Of a stretch of DNA of 46,235 bases, positions 12,064-28,912 are shown in pieces (within the stretch, counting starts at the first letter, position 1; the number at the start of each line of letters is the position of its first letter). The notes below the pieces were generated by a model. That model did no database searches. It was given only the letters and a program-made list of their open reading frames with translations, and had not been told where the DNA came from. The stretch is from contig JAKQLT010000058.1 of the NCBI GenBank assembly GCA_029567025.1, forward strand, positions 1 through 46,235. Direction: 5' to 3'. This stretch comes from Candidatus Omnitrophota bacterium (lineage in GTDB: Bacteria; Omnitrophota; Gorgyraeia; Zapsychrales; Zapsychraceae). A program made the position numbers and the translations under genes.

Positions 12064-12558
12064 TCAAGGAAGATATTTTGCTTTGAAATTTCCAACGGAC
12101 AATCGATATAATTCACGTTCAATAGCTTTATTCTCTATAACGCCCAACAAATAAACAGTGCCGCGCGCGTTTAAAAGGCCGTCGTCTTCTATGCGTCTGA
12201 TAGCGGTAAGGAAATAAGACTGCGCGAATTCAGGGACAAATAATTCCCATTGGCCTAATCGACGATTCATGCTTTTAATTTGGCTGATCAATCCTTTCAT
12301 CGCTTTCGTAGGCCCTATCGTGGAACGAAAAGAATTCGCGGTCAGATCAGAGATGATCCCTTGAGGGGGCGTATAAAAAACTTCCGCATTATATTTTTCT
12401 CGATATTCATTAGCAACTTTAACAGACACATGTTCTCTTAAAATCACAAAACGCCTATTAGAAGTTTCTCCTATCAGTTGTTCTTCGTGGTAAACACTTG
12501 CACAACCATAAAAGAAAAGACACATTATAAGTAACATTTTAATAATTTTTTTATTCAT
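12064..12558 (-). CDS. Hypothetical lipoprotein
   Basis: Internal ATG at 12558 preceded by AAGGGTGG. MNKKIIKMLLIMCLFFYGC has a signal peptide with a lipobox Cys. No family recognised. Confidence 0.55.
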   Translation of the reverse strand: MNKKIIKMLLIMCLFFYGCASVYHEEQLIGETSNRRFVILREHVSVKVANEYREKYNAEVFYTPPQGIISDLTANSFRSTIGPTKAMKGLISQIKSMNRRLGQWELFVPEFAQSYFLTAIRRIEDDGLLNARGTVYLLGVIENKAIERELYRLSVGNFKAKYLP

Positions 12559-12678
12559 AAAAACCACCCTTTTTAATATTCCCGTATCTAAAACTTTTGG
12601 TGATCTCATTTCGTTTTTCATTTAAATCTTTTCTCAAAAAACGAAGAACCTGTCATATGTCCCGTATCCAAAAATTTC

Positions 12679-13429: not shown

Positions 13430-13500
13430 AGGCGTGGACCGGAATCGAACCGGTGTAAAAGGTTTTGCAGACCTCTGCCTAACCTCTTGGCTACCACGCC
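13430..13500 (-). tRNA. tRNA-Cys (anticodon GCA)
   Basis: The reverse complement ggcgtggtagccaagaggttaggcagaggtctGCAaaaccttttacaccggttcgattccggtccacgcct forms a cloverleaf with a U discriminator. No CCA is encoded. Confidence 0.9.
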
Positions 13501-13586
13501 ATATAAAAAATATTCTTTTGAGCGTTGTCCCTTTAGGGGCTACCACGCCATATAAAAAATATTCTTTTAAGCATTGTCCTTTTAAG
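13489..13586. repeat. Tandem 49-nt duplication: first 12 nt of tRNA-Cys plus its upstream (promoter) flank
   Basis: ggctaccacgccatataaaaaatattcttttgagcgttgtccctttagg (13489-13537) versus ggctaccacgccatataaaaaatattcttttaagcattgtccttttaag (13538-13586), about 4 mismatches. Confidence 0.85.
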
Positions 13587-13602
13587 AACTCTGCGCCGTT
13601 AA

Positions 13603-14148
13603 TTATTTAAAAGAACGCTCAACTTCTTTTACAATTTCTTCTTCCGACGCAATATGACCGACACCTTTTGTGCCGCACGCTAAATCGCCTTTTACTGGAC
13701 CAACAAATTTTATTCCATTTTTCTCTAACTTTTTTACATTCTCTTGAAAAATTTTATTCGTATACATCCCTTCATTCATTGCCGGAGCTATAACAATTTT
13801 CGCTTTTGTGGCCAATGTAATACACGTTAAAAGATCATCTGCTAACCCGCACGCTATTTTTGAAATCACATTCGCTGTTGCCGGCGCAATCACAACCGCA
13901 TCCGCACTTTGAGCCAAATCCACATGCTCTATATCCCATGAACTACCATCATTTTCAAACATATCCTGATAAACTTTATTTTGAGATAAACGCGATAACG
14001 TCAACGGCGTAATAAATTTTTTCGCCTCTTGCGTCATCACGACGGAAACCTTATACCTTTTTTTCATAAAAAGCCGCACTAATTCCGCGGCTTTATATGC
14101 CGCAATACTTCCTGTCACTCCCAAAATAATATGTCTTAATTTATTCAC
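13603..14148 (-). CDS. coaC: Phosphopantothenoylcysteine decarboxylase (stand-alone CoaC flavoprotein)
   Basis: 181 aa. ILGVTGSIAAYKAAELVR, APATANVISKIACGLADDLL and PAMN motifs match the flavoprotein half of Dfp/CoaBC. No CoaB half follows. The start overlaps the rpoZ stop (ATGA). Confidence 0.85.
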   Translation of the reverse strand: MNKLRHIILGVTGSIAAYKAAELVRLFMKKRYKVSVVMTQEAKKFITPLTLSRLSQNKVYQDMFENDGSSWDIEHVDLAQSADAVVIAPATANVISKIACGLADDLLTCITLATKAKIVIAPAMNEGMYTNKIFQENVKKLEKNGIKFVGPVKGDLACGTKGVGHIASEEEIVKEVERSFK

Positions 14149-14399
14149 GATTCGGTTTCTTTAGAGGTTGTTTCTTCTTCGGTGGACTCTGCTAATTGGT
14201 CGCTTGATTCTTTAGCTACAACGCGCCCTATCGCAATTTCTTTTAAAGCCACCGATGTCAAGGCATCTGTTGGCGTCGACGGAACTAAACTTCGTTTCCC
14301 TTCAGAAAGCTCCAAAGCCCTTGAAGCCGCAAGTCTTACTAATTTATAAACACTACCGTTTGCTTTGGGTAAAAGATTTTCTAATGATTGATAGTCCAT
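14145..14399 (-). CDS. rpoZ: DNA-directed RNA polymerase subunit omega
   Basis: ATG at 14399 after AAGGGG. MDYQSLENLLPKANGSVYKLVRLAASRALEL.. is a typical omega N-terminus, followed by an acidic tail. The track ORF start at 14483 is an extension. Confidence 0.85.
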   Translation of the reverse strand: MDYQSLENLLPKANGSVYKLVRLAASRALELSEGKRSLVPSTPTDALTSVALKEIAIGRVVAKESSDQLAESTEEETTSKETES

Positions 14400-14557
14400 A
14401 CGCCCCTTTTTAAAAATAAATGTTATATTATTGATTAAATATAAATAGGGATAATATATATCATATATTATTAGGCTTGTCAAAAGACTTATTCGGGCGA
14501 GAAAAAAACAATCTCATAGTTATCAAATGAGAAATGCCTATAAAAACACGTAAAACA

Positions 14558-17287
14558 TCAAGTGACGTTCGGGCCTTCTTTAAACAATTCTGTTAAAATC
14601 GGCAACGTCGTTATAGGTACAATCTCAATAATAACCGGCACAAAACCTTCTACTTGAATATTTTCCACATCCTGCATTTCGAGCGGCAAAACCACGCCAT
14701 TGCCATCACGTTTAATCTGCATATTCAAATTCGCCGGATTAAGGTCAATACCACCAACTTTGTCTTGTGTTATTGTTGGCTGTTGTGCGATAACAGCATT
14801 ATCGCCAGGTTGATCTAAAACTTTCTGTAACGAATAACTGTTTTTTACTGATGATAAATATAAATTAATATGTTCTAAATATTTTCTTGATGAATCATCC
14901 ATAAATGGTTTAGATAAAGCTTGAGTAACAATTGTTATATCGTTTTCTAAATCACCCAGCTTACCTGAAAAACCAAATAATGCCTTACCTTTAATATTAT
15001 TTTGCGCAACGTAATCAAGTGTGGCTTTTTGAAAATCGCCAATTTCAGTTACTCTGCCTAAGCCTACACTGTGTATCATCTCTTTAAGACGCCTATTACC
15101 AATATGATCCGCCGTATTTTGAGCGGCTTCATTTTCTTCTGATAAATTTTCTATTACTCTCGAAAATACTTCATTTATTGTAATATCCGTTCCTTTTTTC
15201 CATGGGAAATTTGTAATAACAAGTGAATATTTTTTTGGCAATTCTGAAAAAGACGCTGGAGATATTCTATCAACCCCATATAAAGTACCAATAATAGTTT
15301 TAACAACATCTATGGGCATATTTAATTTCTTCGCTATTGTAGGAACCATTTTAAATCGTAAAATATCTGACCGCCTATTAAGCTCACGCTGTCTTTCAAG
15401 TATTTCTTTGTTTGTCATTTCATTTTTAGGCTTCAAAAGCTTAGGTTTATTTTGTGTAATTAAAAATAATGACTGCAACTTTTCAGGCACAGACAAAAGA
15501 TTATCTTCTACATAACTAATAGGATATCCTGAATGATGCAAACAGGTCATCAAAGCAAAAGCTTCAGCTTCTTCGCTTGCAAATCCTACGTTCATAAATT
15601 GTTTTTTAATTTCTGGAAATCCTGTAACAGCATGAGCTAAAATTATCATTAAAGGATGTGATTGATTTTTTTCAATCCAATTATAACCTTCTTCTGCTAA
15701 GAAAGACCGCGTATATCGATCATAGCCTAAATATCTGCCAAATGTGTTTAATGTTTCTATGATTTGTGTTTTATTTTCAGCAATATATTGCTTAATATTG
15801 CTGGATTTTCCGTAATCATGATTAGCAACTGATGTTTTAATTATTAAGGCCTGGTTTCTAGAAAAATATCCCAATTTTTCTAATTCATCAACAATGCCTA
15901 ATTCTACAAGAACATGGCGTGTATCATTCTCATCATATCCTAATTTTCCCTTTACTATGTTGTTTATTGTTTTTGTAATCGCCTTACTTATCGTTTGTGT
16001 TCTTGTCATTTTTGAAAAAGGATCAGCTTCTTTTGGTATTAAATTTGGATTTTTATTTCCGTCCCAAACAGGCTTGACAGAGGCATTTCTTGTTGCTGAA
16101 GGCTCTTTAAAATCTCCTCTGACGCGTTGTTTCCTTCCTTGTTTTGTATCCGATAAAAATCTTCCTCTAGAATCTCGAGGAATTCTATTAGGATCTTTAA
16201 CGGTTGCTACCTTTTCCGTCAACATCGCTGAATCAAACCCGCCGGAAAAATATTTCTTTGGCACAATGGATTTTGTTTTCGGGTCGTAATCTTCCTTAAT
16301 ATAATTGTAAACGCCTTTTTTAAATGCCTCGACATATTGATTAAAAATCTTTTTATTAACTGTTTTATCGTCGAGATCAACGCCTTTGGTCTTGCTTTTA
16401 TCCGCGTAAATTTTTCCCAACAAACTTTCTTTTAAAGCTTTTTTATACCAGGTCGCCATAATCATGGCGCTGTAAATTTGGCGCAGTTGAGCGAAATTTT
16501 TTCCTTCATTCACCTCTTGTTCGATAGCCGGAATAATAACTTCACGCATCACTTCCGACGATAATTTGCTTAATTTATCCGCATCGCTTAACGATAAATC
16601 GCGCGTTTTCATCTGATCAGTTAAAGAATTATGCTGAAGCGCCACGTAATCATCCTCGAGCATCACTTTTAAACGGCTGTCAATGATAAGTGCGGTATTA
16701 TCTTTTTCAAAAATCAAAGCGATATCCGGGACAATCCATACCTTATTAAAAGTATCCACCGGAATATCGCTTAATCCAAAAAGGTCATACGCTTTTTTAT
16801 AAACTTTATCCCAGAACTTTTTTCCCAAACCAGATTCTGGATAAATCAAAGAAGACGTGATTTGTTTCAACAAATAATCTTGGGCTAAAAGATCGCGCCC
16901 CATTTCAGTGGTGCCGAAATCTTCAGAAATAATACGATTTTTTTCATACGGCGATAAGTTGACCCAGAGATTTTCTTCAGGAATTGTTAACGCGGCCAAA
17001 AAATATTTAATCATTTTTTCATATTCGCCTTTTAACGCCTCGCCGGATAATCCGGCATCACCTTTATCCATAATAAAATCAAAACGAAGGCCATTTTCCG
17101 GATGCACCGTAATCCCGCTCATCAAAGCCGGCATAAAAGACGGACTTAATGTGATCATGGTTCCTGGCTTAGGTAAAAATGCCACTTGCGCTGAAGCTGG
17201 CGGAATCACATAAGAAAAACTAAAAACAAAAAGCATAAACCAAATAATGGTTTTTTTGAAAAATTTCTTAAAATATTTATTGCCCAT
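14558..17287 (-). CDS. Large secreted hypothetical protein (909 aa) with internal HD-like motifs
   Basis: Signal peptide MGNKYFKKFFKKTIIWFMLFVFSFSYVIPPASA/QV. Central H458, NHDYGKS (490-491), H552 and LHHSGYP (584-589). C-terminal GGIDLNPANLNMQIKRDGNGVVLP motif. No family recognised with confidence. Confidence 0.75.
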   Translation of the reverse strand: MGNKYFKKFFKKTIIWFMLFVFSFSYVIPPASAQVAFLPKPGTMITLSPSFMPALMSGITVHPENGLRFDFIMDKGDAGLSGEALKGEYEKMIKYFLAALTIPEENLWVNLSPYEKNRIISEDFGTTEMGRDLLAQDYLLKQITSSLIYPESGLGKKFWDKVYKKAYDLFGLSDIPVDTFNKVWIVPDIALIFEKDNTALIIDSRLKVMLEDDYVALQHNSLTDQMKTRDLSLSDADKLSKLSSEVMREVIIPAIEQEVNEGKNFAQLRQIYSAMIMATWYKKALKESLLGKIYADKSKTKGVDLDDKTVNKKIFNQYVEAFKKGVYNYIKEDYDPKTKSIVPKKYFSGGFDSAMLTEKVATVKDPNRIPRDSRGRFLSDTKQGRKQRVRGDFKEPSATRNASVKPVWDGNKNPNLIPKEADPFSKMTRTQTISKAITKTINNIVKGKLGYDENDTRHVLVELGIVDELEKLGYFSRNQALIIKTSVANHDYGKSSNIKQYIAENKTQIIETLNTFGRYLGYDRYTRSFLAEEGYNWIEKNQSHPLMIILAHAVTGFPEIKKQFMNVGFASEEAEAFALMTCLHHSGYPISYVEDNLLSVPEKLQSLFLITQNKPKLLKPKNEMTNKEILERQRELNRRSDILRFKMVPTIAKKLNMPIDVVKTIIGTLYGVDRISPASFSELPKKYSLVITNFPWKKGTDITINEVFSRVIENLSEENEAAQNTADHIGNRRLKEMIHSVGLGRVTEIGDFQKATLDYVAQNNIKGKALFGFSGKLGDLENDITIVTQALSKPFMDDSSRKYLEHINLYLSSVKNSYSLQKVLDQPGDNAVIAQQPTITQDKVGGIDLNPANLNMQIKRDGNGVVLPLEMQDVENIQVEGFVPVIIEIVPITTLPILTELFKEGPNVT

Positions 17288-17437
17288 ATCTGCCCCCTTT
17301 TACAAAAATCTTTTTTAACAGCGCCTACATTCGATCAATACGCTAAAAAGCAAATTTTTAAAAACTCTTGTGGAAATCCCACAGTAATCCAAAAAATATT
17401 TTGAATTACTTGGGATGTTTTTTGGCGCCAAAACACC

Positions 17438-17474
17438 AAAAAACAAAAGCCTATTCCTTAAAATGGGAATAGGC
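17438..17474 (-). terminator. Rho-independent terminator (minus strand)
   Basis: Stem gcctattcc / ggaataggc (17449-17457 / 17466-17474). On the minus strand it is followed by TTTTGTTTTTT (A-rich 17438-17448 on plus). It lies about 310 nt below the gmk stop. Confidence 0.6.
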
Positions 17475-17786
17475 CTGAAATATACATATTTTTTCGGTAG
17501 CCAGGCTATCCCAATCTTAGGATCCTTTAGCTTTGCGTCCCAGCTTTTCAGCTAGTTTGCCTTTGTCACAAAATTTTCTAAAGAACAATAAAAACCTACT
17601 CTAAGTATATAATATTTATAAGGAAAAAAACAAGGTCTTGAGACGCAAAAAGTATGATTTTATGAAAACGCTTTCTTCCTAAGATCCAAACTTATGGATG
17701 AGCAAAGCGAAGAATATAAGCTTGATGAGCGATGAAAATTTTACCTACAAAAATTCTAATTTTTCAGGATATTATATGGAAAAATT

Positions 17787-18377
17787 TTAACAAGACAATT
17801 CTGAAATGATAATAGATCGTAGATTTTGATAACACTTGGCGAGATTATCATTCACAATACAATAACGGTAATGTTTGGATTCTCTGAGTTCTTTGACAGC
17901 GGTTTTGAATCGAAGATTGAAAATCTTTTTGTTTTCTGTACCACGCAGAGCCAGCCGTTTTTTTAATTCTTTCAAAGAGGGCGTTTTGACAAAAATACCA
18001 ACTGCTTGGGGCATTTTTTTAAAAACAACTTTCGCGCCTTTGACATCAATGGCTAATAAAACACTTTTTCCTTTTTTTAGCAAATTCTCGACGTATTTTT
18101 TTGGTGTTCCGTAATAATGATCGAACACTTTCATGCTTTCTAAAAAATCACCTTTTTTCTTTTTTGCTAAAAATTGTTTTTTGCTGATAAAAAAATAATC
18201 ACGTCCGTCTTTTTCGCCCACACGCGGATTTCTCGTCGTGACAGAAACAGAACGCTTTAATATATTTTTAAATTTTTTATCGTGAAGAAGTTTTTGATAT
18301 AACGTTGTTTTGCCAGAGCCCGACGGACCAGAAAGAATAAAAACTTTTCCCTTCAAAGACAATGGAGTTTTTTTCAT
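17787..18377 (-). CDS. gmk: Guanylate kinase
   Basis: P-loop GPSGSGKTT and SVTTRNPRVGEKDGRDYFF motif. Confidence 0.93.
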   Translation of the reverse strand: MKKTPLSLKGKVFILSGPSGSGKTTLYQKLLHDKKFKNILKRSVSVTTRNPRVGEKDGRDYFFISKKQFLAKKKKGDFLESMKVFDHYYGTPKKYVENLLKKGKSVLLAIDVKGAKVVFKKMPQAVGIFVKTPSLKELKKRLALRGTENKKIFNLRFKTAVKELRESKHYRYCIVNDNLAKCYQNLRSIIISELSC

Positions 18378-19199
18378 CTATTCAATATTTTGGGCTTGTT
18401 CGCGGATTTTTTCAATTTTGCTTTTTAGCGCAATAACATGGGATGTCACAATTTTATCCTGAAGCTTAGAGCCCATCGTGTTTGTTTCGCGCTGCATTTC
18501 CTGCGCCACAAAATCAATTTTCTTTCCGACGGCTACATCGCTTTTTAAAAGCATTTTCATCTCTTGAATATGATGAAACATGCGTGAAATCTCTTCATGA
18601 ATATCCACGCCTTTCTCAAACGATTTATATTCATCCGACGGTAATTGCGCCTTTTTTTCTTTTAAAACCTCATCACTGCGTTTTTTGATCTGCCTTAACG
18701 CGTTGGTCATTTTATTCATCTGAACGGTTAAATCGCACGCTAAACTTTTTCCTTCACGCTTACGCATATTTAATAAACTCACAATCGCCTGCTGAATGCC
18801 ATTTTCAATTTGCGGCCACAAGACTTCAGGAGTAATCAATTCTTCTTTATTTTCAAAAACACCTGGCAATTTAATGACATCCGCAATGCCCACATCATAT
18901 TTAAGACCAAATTCTTTACTAATATCTTTGGCATATTTTAAATATTTCCGCACAACGCCTTTATTAAGAGACACATTTTCCGACGATCTCTGGGAAACTT
19001 TAACCGAAACCGTAATGCGTCCGCGCGCGATCATTTTCTGAATCATCTGGCGGATTTTCTCTTCATTTGATGCCCAGCCAATCGGCAGATAATAATTCAC
19101 GTCCAAATAACGATGATTCACGCTTTTGATTTCAATCACCGCTTTAATTGTTTTCGTGGAAATCTCAACGCTTCCAAAACCCGTCATACCTTTTATCAT
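18378..19199 (-). CDS. yicC: YicC-family protein
   Basis: MTGFG..EIKSVNHRYLD N-terminal signature and a C-terminal DUF1732-like region (REQAQNIE). It abuts the gmk start. Confidence 0.88.
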   Translation of the reverse strand: MIKGMTGFGSVEISTKTIKAVIEIKSVNHRYLDVNYYLPIGWASNEEKIRQMIQKMIARGRITVSVKVSQRSSENVSLNKGVVRKYLKYAKDISKEFGLKYDVGIADVIKLPGVFENKEELITPEVLWPQIENGIQQAIVSLLNMRKREGKSLACDLTVQMNKMTNALRQIKKRSDEVLKEKKAQLPSDEYKSFEKGVDIHEEISRMFHHIQEMKMLLKSDVAVGKKIDFVAQEMQRETNTMGSKLQDKIVTSHVIALKSKIEKIREQAQNIE

Positions 19200-20059
19200 A
19201 GATTGTCCTTTTTAATCATCACGCGGATGATTCTGTCTAAATCTTCCAACGAATAAAAATCAATAACAATTTTCCCTCTTTTTTTCTTTCCCTCAATACG
19301 CACTTTTGTTCCTAAAAATTTCTGCAAACTTTCTTCTATCAAAAGAATTTCATTCGATTTTGTTTTTTGTTTCTTTTCCCGCCGAGAAAATCCTTTGCCT
19401 TTGAGCTGAATCACATTTTCCAGCTCACGCACGGACATTTCTTTACGCAAAAGGATTTCAAAAAGCATGTTGCGCTCCACATCAGATTCCACACTTAATA
19501 ACGTGCGCGCGTGCCCAACGGATATTTTTCCTTCTGAAACAGCTTTTTTCATCACATCAGATAATTTTAATAAACGCAATAAATTGGTAATCGTCGAACG
19601 ATCTTTACCAACAGATTTCGCGATGGCTTCCTGCGTGTATTGAAATTCATTCATCAACTTTTCATATCCTTGCGCTTCTTCTATCGGGTTTAATTCTTCC
19701 CGCTGAATATTTTCAATCAGCGCGATGACAAAAGCTTCCTGGTCGGAAACATCTTTAATAATAACCGGCACTTGTTCTAAATGTAACGCGCGCGCGGCTT
19801 TTAAACGACGCTCGCCGGCAATCACTTCATAACCGCCATTTTTCGGACGCACTAAAATCGGCTGTAAAATCCCTTTTTCTTCAATAGATTTTTTAAGCGC
19901 CTCTAAACGATCTTGGTCATATTTTGTTCGCGGCTGTTTTGAATTATCTTGAATATCATTTGTTTTTAGAAAAAAAATATTTTTTTGGCTTGGTTCAGAT
20001 ATTTTTTCCTTTTCAGGAATAAGCGCGGATAAACCTTTTCCTAACGCATGTTTTTCCAT
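19196..20059 (-). CDS. parB: Chromosome partitioning protein ParB/Spo0J
   Basis: GKGLSALIP, the ParB box (PILVRP..YEVIAGERRLKAA) and an HTH (TQEAIAKSVGKDRSTITNLLRL). ATG at 20059 behind GGAGA is preferred to the TTG at 20071. Confidence 0.93.
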   Translation of the reverse strand: MEKHALGKGLSALIPEKEKISEPSQKNIFFLKTNDIQDNSKQPRTKYDQDRLEALKKSIEEKGILQPILVRPKNGGYEVIAGERRLKAARALHLEQVPVIIKDVSDQEAFVIALIENIQREELNPIEEAQGYEKLMNEFQYTQEAIAKSVGKDRSTITNLLRLLKLSDVMKKAVSEGKISVGHARTLLSVESDVERNMLFEILLRKEMSVRELENVIQLKGKGFSRREKKQKTKSNEILLIEESLQKFLGTKVRIEGKKKRGKIVIDFYSLEDLDRIIRVMIKKDNL

Positions 20060-21201: not shown

Positions 21202-22794
21202 TTACGCCACCTTTGTTTCTCTTGATATTTTTAATTGCGTAATCGTTGAAAGCAAATAAAACATAGTAAAATACAAAGTCAATCCGCTTGCAAAACGATA
21301 AAATAAAAATCCTAACATTAAAGGAAATATAAACATCATCATTTTTTGCTGTTGAACTTGCATAGGATCAGAGCTTGCCATATTCGCAGATGTCAATTTT
21401 TGTTGATAAAACATAATAAAAATCATTAAAATAGGCAAAATATTAATTTCATTGCCTATTATAGGAAAACTCGCAGGAAGAATAAAAATCCTATCCGGAA
21501 GAGATAAATCTTTAATCCATAAGAAATCAGCGCCTTTAAATGATACTGAACGCCACAAAACTTGATATAATCCAACAAAAATCGGCATTTGTAATAACAT
21601 TGGCAAACATCCGCCCAAAGGATTAATTTTATGCTCTTTATAAAGCTCCATTATTTCTTGATTTGCTTTTTGCGGGCTATTCTTATGTTTTTCTTGAATT
21701 TTCTTCATTAATGGCTGTAATGCCTGCATTTTCTTCATAGAAACTAAACTACGAATTGTTAAAGGATATGTTGCCAAATAAATAATTATGCTTATTAAAA
21801 TAATACAAACTCCCCAATTAGGAATAACTTTATAAATCATATTCATCGTATGATCAATCGCTTTTGCAACAGCGTCGAAAAACCCTGACCTATAATACCT
21901 TTTAATCTCTAATAAATTATATTTTTTTAAAATATCTGTTATTTCTGGACCAGCAAATATTAACGACGAATACGATATTTCATTATTATTTTCTGATTGG
22001 ACATCAAAACCAATAGCCAATTTCTTTTCATTAATATATTCTATTGAATAACCGGAAACTTTATATTCTGGAACAACAATCAAAGAAAAGAATCTATCTC
22101 TAAAACCAACCCAATTAACATTAACAGAATTTACTTTATTTTCTTTTTCAGTAAACTTAAACGCCTTTGCTTTACGATCAATTTCGTTTTCTATACTAAT
22201 CGCATATTCAAATAATGAATTATCATGAATATTATTTCCTTTATTTCGATCAATATCCAGATTGGACATATCTAAAATCATTGCTAATTTACTTAAATTT
22301 TTCAGATTGGACAAATTATCTTTATTTTCTAACTTTATTTTCGATTCTACAATATATTCATCAGGCCTAATTTTATAAAATTTTGAAATTTTAATCTTTT
22401 CGTTTTCATAAAAATATTGAATTTCATTGTTATTTATTATTTTTGATGAAAATTCAACCTGATCATATTCTTTTAATCCAGTAATATTTTTTACAGGAAA
22501 ATATTGTTCATATTCATTAATAAAAATTTTATTGATATTTCCGCCTAAATTAGAAAAATCAACAGTTATTTTATTATTTTTTAAAATTTCTATTTTTTCT
22601 GAAAAATCAGAAGGGGATGGGATGAATTCTTTTGCCGAAGAAACATCTTTTTTATTTTCTATATCTTGTTTATTTTCAATCACTTCTGATGCTTTATTGA
22701 CATCTTTAACAACGATAGGCTTTGGCATGATCGCTGTCCAAATAAACAAAACCATAAAAGACAAAAAAATCGCTAAAAAAAATCTTTTTTCCAT
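21202..22794 (-). CDS. yidC: Membrane protein insertase YidC
   Basis: N-terminal TM helix, large periplasmic domain and a C-terminal 60-kDa IMP core (..KKMQALQPLMKKIQEKHK..NPLGGCLPMLLQMPIF..). Confidence 0.93.
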   Translation of the reverse strand: MEKRFFLAIFLSFMVLFIWTAIMPKPIVVKDVNKASEVIENKQDIENKKDVSSAKEFIPSPSDFSEKIEILKNNKITVDFSNLGGNINKIFINEYEQYFPVKNITGLKEYDQVEFSSKIINNNEIQYFYENEKIKISKFYKIRPDEYIVESKIKLENKDNLSNLKNLSKLAMILDMSNLDIDRNKGNNIHDNSLFEYAISIENEIDRKAKAFKFTEKENKVNSVNVNWVGFRDRFFSLIVVPEYKVSGYSIEYINEKKLAIGFDVQSENNNEISYSSLIFAGPEITDILKKYNLLEIKRYYRSGFFDAVAKAIDHTMNMIYKVIPNWGVCIILISIIIYLATYPLTIRSLVSMKKMQALQPLMKKIQEKHKNSPQKANQEIMELYKEHKINPLGGCLPMLLQMPIFVGLYQVLWRSVSFKGADFLWIKDLSLPDRIFILPASFPIIGNEINILPILMIFIMFYQQKLTSANMASSDPMQVQQQKMMMFIFPLMLGFLFYRFASGLTLYFTMFYLLSTITQLKISRETKVA

Positions 22795-23013: not shown

Positions 23014-23546
23014 AGGGTGCAATTATAACATAGGTCTTTTGTTAGTCAAGAGCTTTTCCTGATGCTAAAAGGATAGGTATTGTTATTTTTTTACCGTCGG
23101 AAAATAAAGAATATTCTCACAATAAAAGAAAAAAATATTTTTTAAAGCGTTTAAAGTGCTTCTGCGCGAAACACTTGCAAGCGTGTTAAAATTTAATTTG
23201 AAATGATAATGTTCTTTGTTATAATAACCGCACATTTTCATTTTTTTATAAAACTATCGGCGATTGTAAGATTACAAATCCTCAAACAACAACGCGCCCT
23301 AAAGAAAAAGATTGACAATAGAATAATTTTCCAGTACAAATGAAACCCTTCGGCGTAAAAAACCGAATCTGTTATAACAGCCGAGTCATTCCGACGATGA
23401 TAATAAAAAACGTTTTAAAATACCGTCGTTCATATAAAAATTAAGGCTGTGGAAAACCTGTGAATATAAATTTTGTTTTACTGTAAATTGTTTATTTTCA
23501 ATATTTTAAGAATTTCTTGTTATTCTTAGCACATGTGACAAATCTT
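23014..23546. other. Candidate oriC region (rpmH-dnaA divergent spacer)
   Basis: A 533-nt AT-rich non-coding spacer at the exact point where gene orientation flips from all-minus to all-plus. It contains DnaA-box-like 9-mers and lies 2.1 kb from the parS sites. Confidence 0.6.
23448..23467 (+). promoter_or_regulatory. Two DnaA-box-like 9-mers
   Basis: tgtggaaaa (23448-23456) and tgtgaatat (23459-23467) each match TGTGNATAA at 8 of 9 positions. tgtgaatat recurs at 25022-25030, just before dnaN. Confidence 0.45.
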
Positions 23547-24881
23547 ATGAGTCTCGTCGAAATTTGGAAACAAGCGCAACCTGTCATTCGAGAAAAAATA
23601 GGCGCAACATCCTATGAAACGTGGTTCTCTAATATTGAGGCCCAAAACAAAGACAATAATATTCTGCAACTTCAAGCTCCGGATGAGTTTTTTAAAAATT
23701 GGATTGTCGAACATTATCGCGAACTTATAGAAGCAACGCTTAAAAATCTTTCACAAAACATCGCGCATATTGAATTTTCCGTCAATGAAAATATTATTCA
23801 AGAAGAAAAACGCCTACGTTTAGTAGAGTTCGAAAAAGATTTTCAGCCTGTCAAAAATCATCCATCACATTTAAATCATCGCTTTACCTTTGACCATTTT
23901 GTTATCGGCCCGTCAAATCGTTTCGCGTGTGCCGCGAGTTTAGCCGTCGCAGAATCGCCGGCTAAGGCCTATAATCCTTTATTCATTTACGGCGATGTTG
24001 GCTTAGGAAAAACTCATCTGATTCAATCAATCACGCATAAAATCCAGCAATTGCATCCCCAGCAAAAAATCTGTTACCTGACATCGGAACAATTTACTAA
24101 TGAACTAATTGACGCTATTCGTCATCGCTCAACACCGGAATTTCGCAAAAAATATAGAGAGGTCGACGTTCTTTTAATTGATGATATTCATTTTATCGCC
24201 GGTAAAGAGTCCACTCAAGAAGAATTTTTCAATACCTTTAACAGTTTACATGATAATCGCAAACAAATTATCATCACCTCAGATAGGCCACCCAAAGAAA
24301 TTTCTAATTTAGAAGAACGTTTACGGTCGCGTTTTGAATGGGGCTTAACAGCGGATATTCAACCGCCTGATTATGAAACGCGCATCGCGATCTTACAAAA
24401 AAAAGTGGAAAATGAAGCGGTGAAAGTTCCGCAAGATGTGATTCAATTTATCGCGGAACAAATTAAAACCAATATTCGAGAATTAGAAGGTGCGCTTATT
24501 CGGGTTGCGGCGTATTCTTTATTAGAAGAAAAAAAAGTTACACTAGAGCTTGCGAAATCTATTTTAAAAGATATGGTAAAAGAGACGACTAAAACGATTA
24601 GCATTGAAATGATTCAAAAAACAGTCGTTGATTATTTCAAAATGTCTTTAATGGAGCTGCGATCTAAACATCGCAATAAAAATGTGGTCTTGGCCAGACA
24701 AGTCGCGATGTATTTATGCCGGCAATTAACACATTTTTCCCTACCAGAAATTGGCAATGCTTTTGGAGGTAAAGATCACACAACTGTTCTACATTCTTGC
24801 AAAAAAATAGAAGACCAAATAAAAGAAGATAGCGGTCTTAAAAACCTGGTGATGGAGTTAACCACAATTTTACAACAATGA
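23547..24881 (+). CDS. dnaA: Chromosomal replication initiator DnaA
   Basis: MSLVEIWKQ..TWF N-terminus, AAA+ motifs (GDVGLGKTHL, LLIDDIHF) and a C-terminal DNA-binding domain (..GGKDHTTVLHSCKKI). ATG at 23547 is preferred to the TTG at 23517. Confidence 0.95.
   Translation: MSLVEIWKQAQPVIREKIGATSYETWFSNIEAQNKDNNILQLQAPDEFFKNWIVEHYRELIEATLKNLSQNIAHIEFSVNENIIQEEKRLRLVEFEKDFQPVKNHPSHLNHRFTFDHFVIGPSNRFACAASLAVAESPAKAYNPLFIYGDVGLGKTHLIQSITHKIQQLHPQQKICYLTSEQFTNELIDAIRHRSTPEFRKKYREVDVLLIDDIHFIAGKESTQEEFFNTFNSLHDNRKQIIITSDRPPKEISNLEERLRSRFEWGLTADIQPPDYETRIAILQKKVENEAVKVPQDVIQFIAEQIKTNIRELEGALIRVAAYSLLEEKKVTLELAKSILKDMVKETTKTISIEMIQKTVVDYFKMSLMELRSKHRNKNVVLARQVAMYLCRQLTHFSLPEIGNAFGGKDHTTVLHSCKKIEDQIKEDSGLKNLVMELTTILQQ

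Positions 24882-26156: not shown

Positions 26157-28912
<2,756 letters not shown>

Follow-up and report, generated by a model that had tools for sequence, protein, structure and literature searches.

A riboswitch-linked gene between gmk and rpoZ of an Omnitrophota bacterium encodes a carrier protein with an exchangeable cargo cassette

The window analysed here, positions 1 to 46,235 of contig JAKQLT010000058.1 of a Candidatus Omnitrophota bacterium (assembly GCA_029567025.1), carries between gmk and rpoZ a gene for a 909-aa protein, P0001, encoded by the open reading frame (ORF) 14558..17287. The gene, which is among some 10 paralogues of its own genome, belongs to a carrier family, essentially confined to one Omnitrophota order and apparently undescribed, in which a Sec signal peptide and a constant 320-aa head are followed by a variable middle and a constant tail of 60-70 aa. 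The middle is an exchangeable cassette, and the gene is preceded by a riboswitch for cyclic di-GMP (c-di-GMP). We consider it probable, though well short of certain, that P0001 is exported, is repressed by c-di-GMP and carries a divergent HD-type phosphohydrolase; its catalysis and its destination are what we infer. The features on which the argument draws are listed by window position.

13603-14148, minus strand: coaC, after rpoZ
14145-14399, minus strand: rpoZ, downstream insertion flank (PF01192; 84 aa as called on identical contigs)
14558..17287 (stop codon included), minus strand: carrier gene, 909 aa, from ORF and translation
14561..14773, minus strand: family tail, aa 839-909 (GGIDLNPANLNMQIKRDGNGVVLP...GFVPVIIEIVPITTLPIL), in all members examined
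14797..16232, minus strand: exchangeable cargo cassette, aa ~352-830; a near-identical strain has an unrelated 1382-nt cassette in its place
14813..15970, minus strand: cargo module, aa ~440-825, all-helical, with H/HD/H/HH-G-P/D signature; candidate divergent HD-type phosphohydrolase
15266..15271, minus strand: D673-R674 in the L(D)RI(S/T)PA motif, at least 90% conserved
15521..15538, minus strand: H584-H585-S-G-Y-P589; H, H, G and P invariant; aligns with HHE..DG.GYP with a 5-residue deletion
15815..15820, minus strand: H490-D491 (HD), invariant; aligns with the HD of HD-GYP domains
16220..16234, minus strand: D-S-A-M-L junction motif, aa 352-356, from D-x-A-M enrichment; left breakpoint of the cargo swap
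16235..17188, minus strand: family head domain, aa 34-351, ending PKKYFSGG; the only part shared by homologues
17192..17287, minus strand: Sec-type signal peptide, aa 1-32, predicted cleavage ASA/Q33, read from the sequence and the family consensus
17437..17476, minus strand: intrinsic terminator (11-bp stem, 8-nt loop, U-run), the expression platform (hairpin 17476-17447 plus T-run)
17465..17512, minus strand: predicted antiterminator, pairing the aptamer 3' segment GGGAUAGCCUGG (17512-17501) with the terminator 5' arm CAGGCCUAUUCCC (17477-17465)
17492..17571, minus strand: c-di-GMP-I riboswitch aptamer (GEMM-I), RF03167 and RF01051
17787-18377, minus strand: gmk (guanylate kinase), upstream insertion flank (PF00625 on an identical product)
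18378-19199, minus strand: yicC, upstream of gmk on the same strand

A constant head and tail around an exchangeable middle

A homologue search with P0001 returned more than 3800 matches that share only its first 37-46%, at 45-62% identity. These matches are 660-1588 aa long and hold very different Pfam domains in their middles: receiver, HEAT repeats, UDP-glucose pyrophosphorylase, phosphoglucomutase, hexokinase, LysM, cNMP-binding, FHA, CheR and metallophosphatase. Their organism-bearing source names are all Omnitrophica or Omnitrophota, and a few sources are named 'hydrothermal vent metagenome'. The head (aa 34-351) is 50-63% identical to nine other copies in the same genome and to copies in relatives. 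P0001 shows both family end patterns, ..RKYFSGG for the head and GGIDLN..L.IKRDG.G.PLP...GF.PVII.I.P for the tail, and head and tail were both present in 121 of 121 members examined. A first-pass annotation of this DNA had noted a C-terminal motif and a hydrophobic tail after the enzyme-like segment. The motif is there (GGIDLNP at 845), but because the same tail stands on all 121 members it is a piece of the family tail and not of an enzyme.

Within the 1.6-Mb genome of the window we counted 10 heads and about 11 tails, several of them cut by contig ends. A 3.7-Mb genome of the same taxonomic family, G014, holds 74 head copies, many of them clustered on shared contigs (for example C6, C39 and C69). 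Across the genome of the window and 30 relatives of its genus, family and order, 28 of 31 genomes carry 1-74 head copies, 423 in total; among 60 other genomes of the phylum, sampled evenly, the head was found in only one. The carrier family is therefore an expansion of roughly one order, and the idea that it spans the phylum was rejected. We found no description of it in the literature searched.

Neither head nor tail matched anything in Pfam, NCBIfam or PDB sequences. The AlphaFold2 (AF2) model of the full-length protein has a predicted local distance difference test score (pLDDT) of 58, with a mixed alpha/beta head mostly at 70-90 and a tail of low confidence, and a Foldseek search with this model gave no significant match for the head. 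The best PDB match of the full-length model, the pore-forming toxin component NheA, was not significant (E 0.26, probability 0.07) and was not used. When the tail served as the phmmer query, a short stretch near the head end was also matched in two paralogues of the same genome, on C143 and C2, where K-G-V-D-x-x-D...N.K-I-Y resembles G-G-I-D-L-N...L.Q-I-K. The segments concerned are aa 299-320 and aa 840-862 in P0001. The resemblance of head and tail could be chance, or could hint at interchangeable head and tail segments in an assembly.

The middle of the carrier is an exchangeable cassette, as the comparison of two alleles makes plain. At the same yicC-gmk-[x]-rpoZ-coaC position, contigs from two other runs encode a second protein, P0002 (891 aa), and the allele with the alternative cargo, locus L011, keeps the aptamer. 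Aligned with L011, the window gives the following picture.

16233-19300: 98.5% identical
14797-16232: no similarity (1436 nt in the window against 1382 nt)
13539-14796: 98.25% identical
yicC, gmk and spacer: 4 differences in 1912 nt (99.8% identical)
Head: 96.0% identical, 20 of 42 differences within 57 nt around the signal-peptide cleavage site
Tail: 7 differences in the first 30 nt, then 0 over 435 nt

DNA identity with L011 stops at 16233. The breakpoints of the swap fall at DSAML352, after the head, and in a DNAVI/QPVI segment 8-10 residues before the tail. Composition also breaks inside the gene at the cassette borders: GC content is 31% in the cargo, with 20% at third codon positions (GC3), against 38% (GC3 39%) in the head, 40% (GC3 39%) in the tail and 36.9% in the genome. 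In all six other paralogues checked, the head is richer in GC than the rest. The cargo of P0002 is unrelated in sequence and has an H..H...HD.D-like stretch of its own; it found no database match, PDB sequence and profile searches included. It is absent from the genome of the window, where no donor of the alternative cargo was found.

The left breakpoint coincides with a motif that is enriched in the family. D-x-A-M occurs 201 times in the 121 members as compared with 15.8 +/- 4.4 times in shuffled sequences, a 13-fold excess, and its occurrences gather directly behind the head and directly ahead of the tail. At the corresponding junctions P0001 has DSAML (352-356) and, at 829, DNAVI, a degenerate form.

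A lineage-specific insertion headed by a c-di-GMP-I riboswitch

The ORF 14558..17287 on the minus strand bears out the first-pass annotation of a 909-aa gene with a Sec-type signal between gmk and rpoZ, and synteny agrees with its further claim of an insertion. We compared 20 relatives belonging to other genera and families of the order, and in all 20 rpoZ and coaC come within 17-260 nt after gmk, with no intervening gene. Given that gmk and rpoZ are adjacent in all of them, the gene is not an ancestral occupant of the slot across the lineage; the riboswitch and the carrier gene, a block of ~3.3 kb, are a lineage-specific insertion into the conserved yicC-gmk-rpoZ-coaC block. The identical 909-aa protein was found on 11 contigs from at least 6 independent samples, and every contig that includes flanking sequence shows it in this slot. 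Insertion by a mobile element was considered and rejected, as flanking direct or inverted repeats were not found. A 499-nt spacer separates gmk from the ORF, the ATG has a Shine-Dalgarno sequence (GGGGG) 6 nt on its 5' side, and a gap of 158 nt follows before rpoZ.

The spacer of about 500 nt had been credited with a terminator of its own. That terminator is confirmed (hairpin 17476-17447 and T-run), and a c-di-GMP-I riboswitch in the same spacer had gone unrecognised. Its aptamer matches RF03167 over model positions 1-80 of 80 (66.7 bits, gathering 59, E 1.5e-14) and the canonical RF01051 over positions 1-87 of 87 (66.7 bits, gathering 35); both Rfam models belong to clan CL00126. The sole departure from the RF03167 consensus in the printed alignment is an A in the window (CGCAAAG for CGCGAAG). 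The terminator hairpin with its U-run lies 16 nt beyond the aptamer, and 205 nt separate the aptamer from the ATG. The element resembles known c-di-GMP-I riboswitches (Vibrio cholerae Vc2; RF01051, RF03167) in its full-length match above gathering, in the intrinsic terminator that follows and in its apparent control of surface or secreted-protein genes, as in other bacteria. It differs in that it is predicted to regulate a gene of an undescribed carrier family, as about half of the c-di-GMP-I riboswitches in this genus do.

The expression platform offers two alternative uses of the terminator 5' arm, in the terminator itself and in the predicted antiterminator. As long as the 3' arm of the terminator has not been transcribed, the antiterminator pairing is the fold of lowest free energy for the nascent transcript, and two other carrier-linked leaders, C91 and L124, show the same antiterminator/terminator design. 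On this folding model c-di-GMP would favour termination, and the element would act as a kinetic OFF switch.

The genome of the window holds five c-di-GMP-I riboswitches, two of which precede carrier genes: the one described above, and a second before the C91 paralogue, whose cargo matches Pfam GGDEF at E 4.6e-5 with 23.7 bits against a cut-off of 23.8. A third lies 358 nt from a contig end, a fourth precedes pilin-like genes and a fifth precedes a small Zn-ribbon protein; the coordinates before non-carrier genes are C68:6817-6925 and C237:7396-7542. The sister genome G001, of the same genus, has 14, and 7 of these lie 66-300 nt upstream of head genes (C1:21538, C44:1499, C44:6951, C44:48406, C45:39204, C45:50218 and C45:124378). 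Among the matches listed, none of the riboswitch-head pairs came from another genus. A general link between riboswitch and carrier was rejected, the head being found in only 1 of 40 sampled riboswitch-downstream regions of relatives, and that one in the sister genome; the link appears to be a genus-level expansion. In the other genera, the riboswitch-downstream genes of the 40 sampled regions are pilins and other signal-peptide proteins.

In the order as a whole, most c-di-GMP-I riboswitches stand before type IV pilin-like genes (N-termini GFTLVEI...). They also recur before a Zn-ribbon-like protein of ~100 aa with the motif F/YIR.YKK.D...I..HL.I.GDL...C..C. The loci behind the pilin and Zn-ribbon-like pattern are L026, L028, L030, L032, L041, L044, L045, L049, L054, L055, L057 and L058.

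The insertion block lies 6-9 kb from dnaA, dnaN, gyrB and the GC-skew switch, and the chromosomal replication origin falls inside the window. The GC-skew sign changes near 24 kb; from 21.5 to 23 kb the sequence is AT-rich (GC 0.26). Neighbouring features are listed below.

12064-12621, minus strand: 185-aa ORF between thrS and the tRNA gene, N-terminus lipoprotein-like (...LFFYGC)
13430-13500, minus strand: tRNA gene (Rfam 64.7 bits), just downstream of coaC
21202-22794, minus strand: yidC
23517-24881, plus strand: dnaA
25031-26119, plus strand: dnaN
26438-28912, plus strand: gyrB

The cargo module and its likeness to HD-GYP domains

The motifs of the cargo lie where the first-pass annotation had placed them: H458, N489-H490-D491-YGKS, H552 and L583-H584-H585-S-G-Y-P589, and the C-terminal motif likewise. 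Its description of an H..HD..H..HH-x-GYP order lacking the E and DG residues also holds, for this order is conserved in relatives of the cargo and is collinear with HD-GYP domains. In an alignment of 10 homologous modules, which share only ~20-29% identity, H490, D491, H552, H584, H585, G587 and P589 are invariant. Judged from this alignment, the conserved H/HD/H/HH-G-P residues of the module are not chance.

Relatives of the module are few. A word-indexed homologue search with the cargo alone returned nothing, and one seeded with the more consensus-like P0102 returned only 7 proteins; an exhaustive search of 1.84 billion representatives with aa 425-830 returned 16. All but two of these are parts of larger proteins (14 of 16), the exceptions being a 173-aa fragment of P0001 and P0127, which is roughly the module alone. 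A hidden Markov model (HMM) built from two sequences detects the ~400-aa module in 21 of 21 proteins examined, P0001 among them at E 1e-29. Many module-bearing proteins are head-tail carriers. Three hosts without a head (P0129, P0137 and P0138) have the module at their N-terminus and then cNMP-binding, Zeta/AAA kinase and SpoT-like HD domains, and the module typically precedes a cNMP-binding domain or accompanies GGDEF or receiver domains. A genome scan located it in metagenome-assembled genomes (MAGs) labelled Peribacteria (L132, L137), Elusimicrobiota (L138), Planctomycetia (L139) and Omnitrophota; by similarity to the three head-less hosts, the modules beyond Omnitrophota probably sit in head-less cytoplasmic signalling proteins. 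Together with the riboswitch, these domain neighbours suggest a role of the module in nucleotide second-messenger biology.

The module shares several features with HD-GYP phosphodiesterases (PF13487 HD_5; RpfG, Bd1817, PmGH). The residue order is H ... HD ... H ... HH ... GYP ... D, the cargo is all-helical in its AF2 model, it aligns collinearly with HD-GYP domains of relatives, and both have a link to c-di-GMP, which for the cargo runs through the riboswitch and through the GGDEF and cNMP-binding neighbours in other proteins. The differences are no less clear. The cargo has no significant sequence, profile or fold similarity to these enzymes, lacks the E and the DG of HHExxDGxGYP, has longer spacers, continues beyond its core into a 150-residue helical extension, and sits on an almost Cys-free carrier with a signal peptide.

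The metal-dependent phosphohydrolase (HD) fold that had been proposed for this segment was not demonstrated by any of our profile searches. At E <= 10, P0001 matched no Pfam family, and against Pfam plus NCBIfam it gave only two chance-level matches; in the same libraries, P0001 and nine cargo homologues had no HD_5, HD or PDEase match. The closest approach was a cas3_HD match of the homologue P0089 in NCBIfam, below cut-off at E 0.023. Six-frame searches of the genome with PF13487 and PF01966 recovered other genes and not P0001. This genome contains four canonical HD-GYP genes. A head paralogue on C151 (head 1203-2135) has immediately upstream of it the 3' end of a canonical HD-GYP gene (C151:2536-2706, minus strand; PF13487, 53 bits). 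PDB sequence and profile searches with the whole protein and with the cargo alignment gave no match. We also compared the cargo alignment by hhalign with HD-GYP alignments and two other groups matching Pfam HD, all built from the genomes of relatives, and obtained probabilities of at most 1.2% (P about 0.04-0.1); against the HD-GYP alignments alone the values were 0.6-1.2% (P 0.04-0.09). These non-significant alignments are collinear with both HD-GYP templates, placing H on H, HD on HD and HH-----GYP on HHExxDGxGYP.

Structure prediction with a fold search, which the first-pass annotation had suggested as a check, gave a confident model and no significant match. AF2 predicts an all-helical module (pLDDT 81, predicted template-modelling score 0.79) with the conserved residues at helix ends, and in its C-terminal 150 residues long helices resembling coiled-coil or stalk proteins. 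The best Foldseek match in the PDB had E 0.12 and a template-modelling (TM) score of ~0.25. Phosphodiesterases and phosphohydrolases appeared only among weak matches: class-I cyclic-nucleotide phosphodiesterases made up 7 of the top 50 PDB matches at non-significant probabilities of 0.06-0.25, with PDE1B, TcrPDEC1, PDE2A and PDE10 recurring, and two phage 'phosphohydrolases' were matched in BFVD at probability 0.11. On its sequence, P0001 falls outside the HD-GYP family as current models (PF13487) define it. We lean, if only slightly, towards the module being a very divergent HD-superfamily domain.

Export, destination and competing explanations

The N-terminus of P0001, MGNKYFKKFFKKTIIWFMLFVFSFSYVIPPASA followed by QV, reads as a Sec signal peptide with a Lys-rich n-region (5 Lys), a 16-residue hydrophobic core and an A-S-A/Q site. 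A-Q is kept at the cleavage position in the consensus of 50 aligned family members, which supports the earlier call of an exported-type protein with a Sec signal ..ASA/QV; there is no Cys at the N-terminus and hence no lipobox. Cysteine accounts for 0.08% of residues in the family against 1.09% in the long ORFs of the genome, 58 of the 121 members have none, and P0001 has a single one in 909 aa. Because signal peptide, cysteine purge and cytoplasm-type cargos come in combination, they argue that the carriers leave the cytoplasm and possibly the cell.

Many paralogues combine a Sec signal with a variable part and a C-terminal module that is conserved, and in this the family recalls type IX secretion cargo and the passengers of autotransporters and two-partner secretion (TPS), and cysteine is scarce in unfolded outer-membrane-crossing passengers too. 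However, no type IX C-terminal domain (T9SS-CTD, TIGR04183-type), beta-barrel translocator or TPS model in Pfam or NCBIfam matches the carrier, nothing in those systems corresponds to the constant 320-aa head at the N-terminus, the tail is only 60-70 aa long and the cargos are cytoplasm-type enzymes.

The course of events that we favour would run as follows. At high c-di-GMP the aptamer would fold, the terminator would form and transcription would stop; at low c-di-GMP the aptamer 3' strand would pair with the terminator 5' arm and the gene would be read. Sec would export the carrier, with cleavage after Ala32. For a further step past the inner membrane, head and tail would provide addressing, anchoring or assembly functions common to the whole family, and processing at the D-x-A-M sites may release the cargo. 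The cargo (aa ~440-825) would be a very divergent member of the HD superfamily, an HD-GYP-like metal-dependent phosphohydrolase whose likeliest substrate is a cyclic mono- or dinucleotide, with H458, H490/D491, H552, H584/H585 and D673 as proposed metal ligands. It would act outside the cytoplasm of the producer, at the cell surface or in an attached host or prey cell. We count in favour of a c-di-GMP-linked cargo that the other riboswitch-controlled paralogue of this genome, C91, bears what looks like a GGDEF-like domain.

Several points weigh against this account. The likeness to HD-GYP domains lacks statistical support (Pfam/NCBIfam; hhalign ~1%; Foldseek E 0.12), the E and DG residues are absent in P0001, and the first His motif is not invariant. 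In its minimum-free-energy fold the full leader forms both aptamer and terminator, and the OFF logic therefore rests on a kinetic argument. Three riboswitch-controlled carriers of the sister genome have no recognisable c-di-GMP-related cargo, showing neither a Pfam domain nor the H/HD/HH-GYP module, and the notion that riboswitch-controlled carriers always bear such cargo was rejected; a fourth has, by eye, HPr- and kinase-like sequence. Outside a cytoplasm, it is not obvious what a c-di-GMP hydrolase would act on. Finally, head and tail have no detectable relative, and export beyond the inner membrane, D-x-A-M cleavage and delivery are therefore steps that we purely infer.

Two alternatives bear on what the cargo does and where. 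It is unlikely, in our judgement, that the cargo is non-enzymatic, a helical binding or sensor module for a metal, a nucleotide or a protein whose HD-GYP likeness is convergent or accidental. Such a module would suit the lack of any significant HMM, profile-profile or fold match, the missing E and DG, and the coiled-coil- or stalk-like helices of the C-terminal 150 residues; yet seven invariant positions (five His/Asp, plus the G and P of GYP) persist at ~20-29% identity and match HD-GYP metal ligands in order and spacing, and the module recurs beside cNMP-binding and GGDEF domains. Somewhat doubtful, though it has to be taken seriously, is a protein that stays in the periplasm or at the surface of the producer as an extracellular phosphatase or nuclease, an alternative raised by the first-pass annotation, or as a nucleotide scavenger or coat component, with head and tail as envelope anchors. 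Omnitrophota with reduced metabolism are expected to scavenge, the Sec signal and extreme Cys depletion fit such a location, and the riboswitches of these genomes, which mostly precede pilins and signal-peptide proteins, point to a surface regulon. Against a surface role, many cargos of the family (receivers, kinases, hexokinase, phosphoglucomutase, UDP-glucose pyrophosphorylase, nucleoside diphosphate kinase and GGDEF among them) need cytoplasmic cofactors and are hard to fit into an ATP-free compartment; nothing in Pfam, NCBIfam or Foldseek links head or tail to peptidoglycan, S-layer or outer-membrane anchors.

The remaining explanations find far less room. If the N-terminus were an uncleaved anchor, P0001 could be a cytoplasmic c-di-GMP-pathway enzyme under riboswitch feedback, with the simple substrate logic of a phosphodiesterase under a riboswitch for its own substrate, and cytoplasm-type cargos are indeed common across the family. 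We regard this as very improbable: by the positive-inside rule the five Lys before the helix place the bulk of the protein outside, the A-x-A/Q site is conserved, the 14-fold Cys depletion is specific to the family, and the genome is already provided with its four canonical HD-GYP genes. Still harder to sustain is a polymorphic toxin of interbacterial competition. As in CdiA-CT, Rhs-CT and MafB, constant parts flank a cassette that is swapped between close strains by recombination, here with breakpoints in conserved parts and in a multi-copy gene with variable payloads. Unlike in those toxins, the variable part lies inside the protein instead of at its C-terminus, an immunity gene is absent (in both alleles the next gene is rpoZ, 158 nt on), the majority of cargos are enzymes of housekeeping type or signalling domains, mostly non-toxic in type, and no toxin family was matched in Pfam and NCBIfam, the libraries to which that search extended.

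A bolder version of the exported-carrier account, which we hold to be rather improbable, takes head and tail as address labels of an undescribed, order-specific route by which these small, probably host-dependent bacteria would deliver Cys-free, cytoplasm-type enzymes into an attached host or prey cell, with a cyclic (di)nucleotide phosphodiesterase as the load of this copy. The phosphodiesterase would erase the second-messenger signalling or nucleotide-based defence of the target, production would be limited to times of low c-di-GMP in the producer, and, as targets change, recombination within the constant parts would let strains exchange their cassettes. Giant and multi-enzyme proteins of Omnitrophota are the subject of two preprints (West-Roberts et al. 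2023, bioRxiv 10.1101/2023.11.21.568195; bioRxiv 10.64898/2026.06.07.730766), where, in the passages found by word search, they appear as signal-peptide-bearing strings of cytoplasm-type domains and are discussed as tools of a host-dependent or predatory lifestyle. P0001 shares the phylum and this make-up, and differs from these giants in being only 909 aa long. Word searches of both papers returned no mention of a shared head or tail or of cysteine depletion, and that of West-Roberts et al. (2023) none of paralogues; the search terms did not cover riboswitches or cassette exchange.

For the biology of this phylum, which has no routine cultures, the carriers amount to a family with 1-74 genes per genome in 28 of 31 genomes and no relative in Pfam, NCBIfam or PDB. 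Since the head occurs in 28 of 31 genomes and in only 1 of 60 elsewhere, a phylogenetic-profile search for the export machinery is feasible. The two alleles, with flanks 99.8% identical and different cargos, are a natural experiment that defines the exchangeable unit and its junctions. The c-di-GMP-I riboswitch, predicted to be an OFF switch, would place the gene in the low-c-di-GMP state of the cell, and the 390-residue module with its invariant His/Asp signature is a small cargo with a testable activity. If the cargo is indeed an HD-GYP-like hydrolase, it would extend that superfamily to a form missed by current models.

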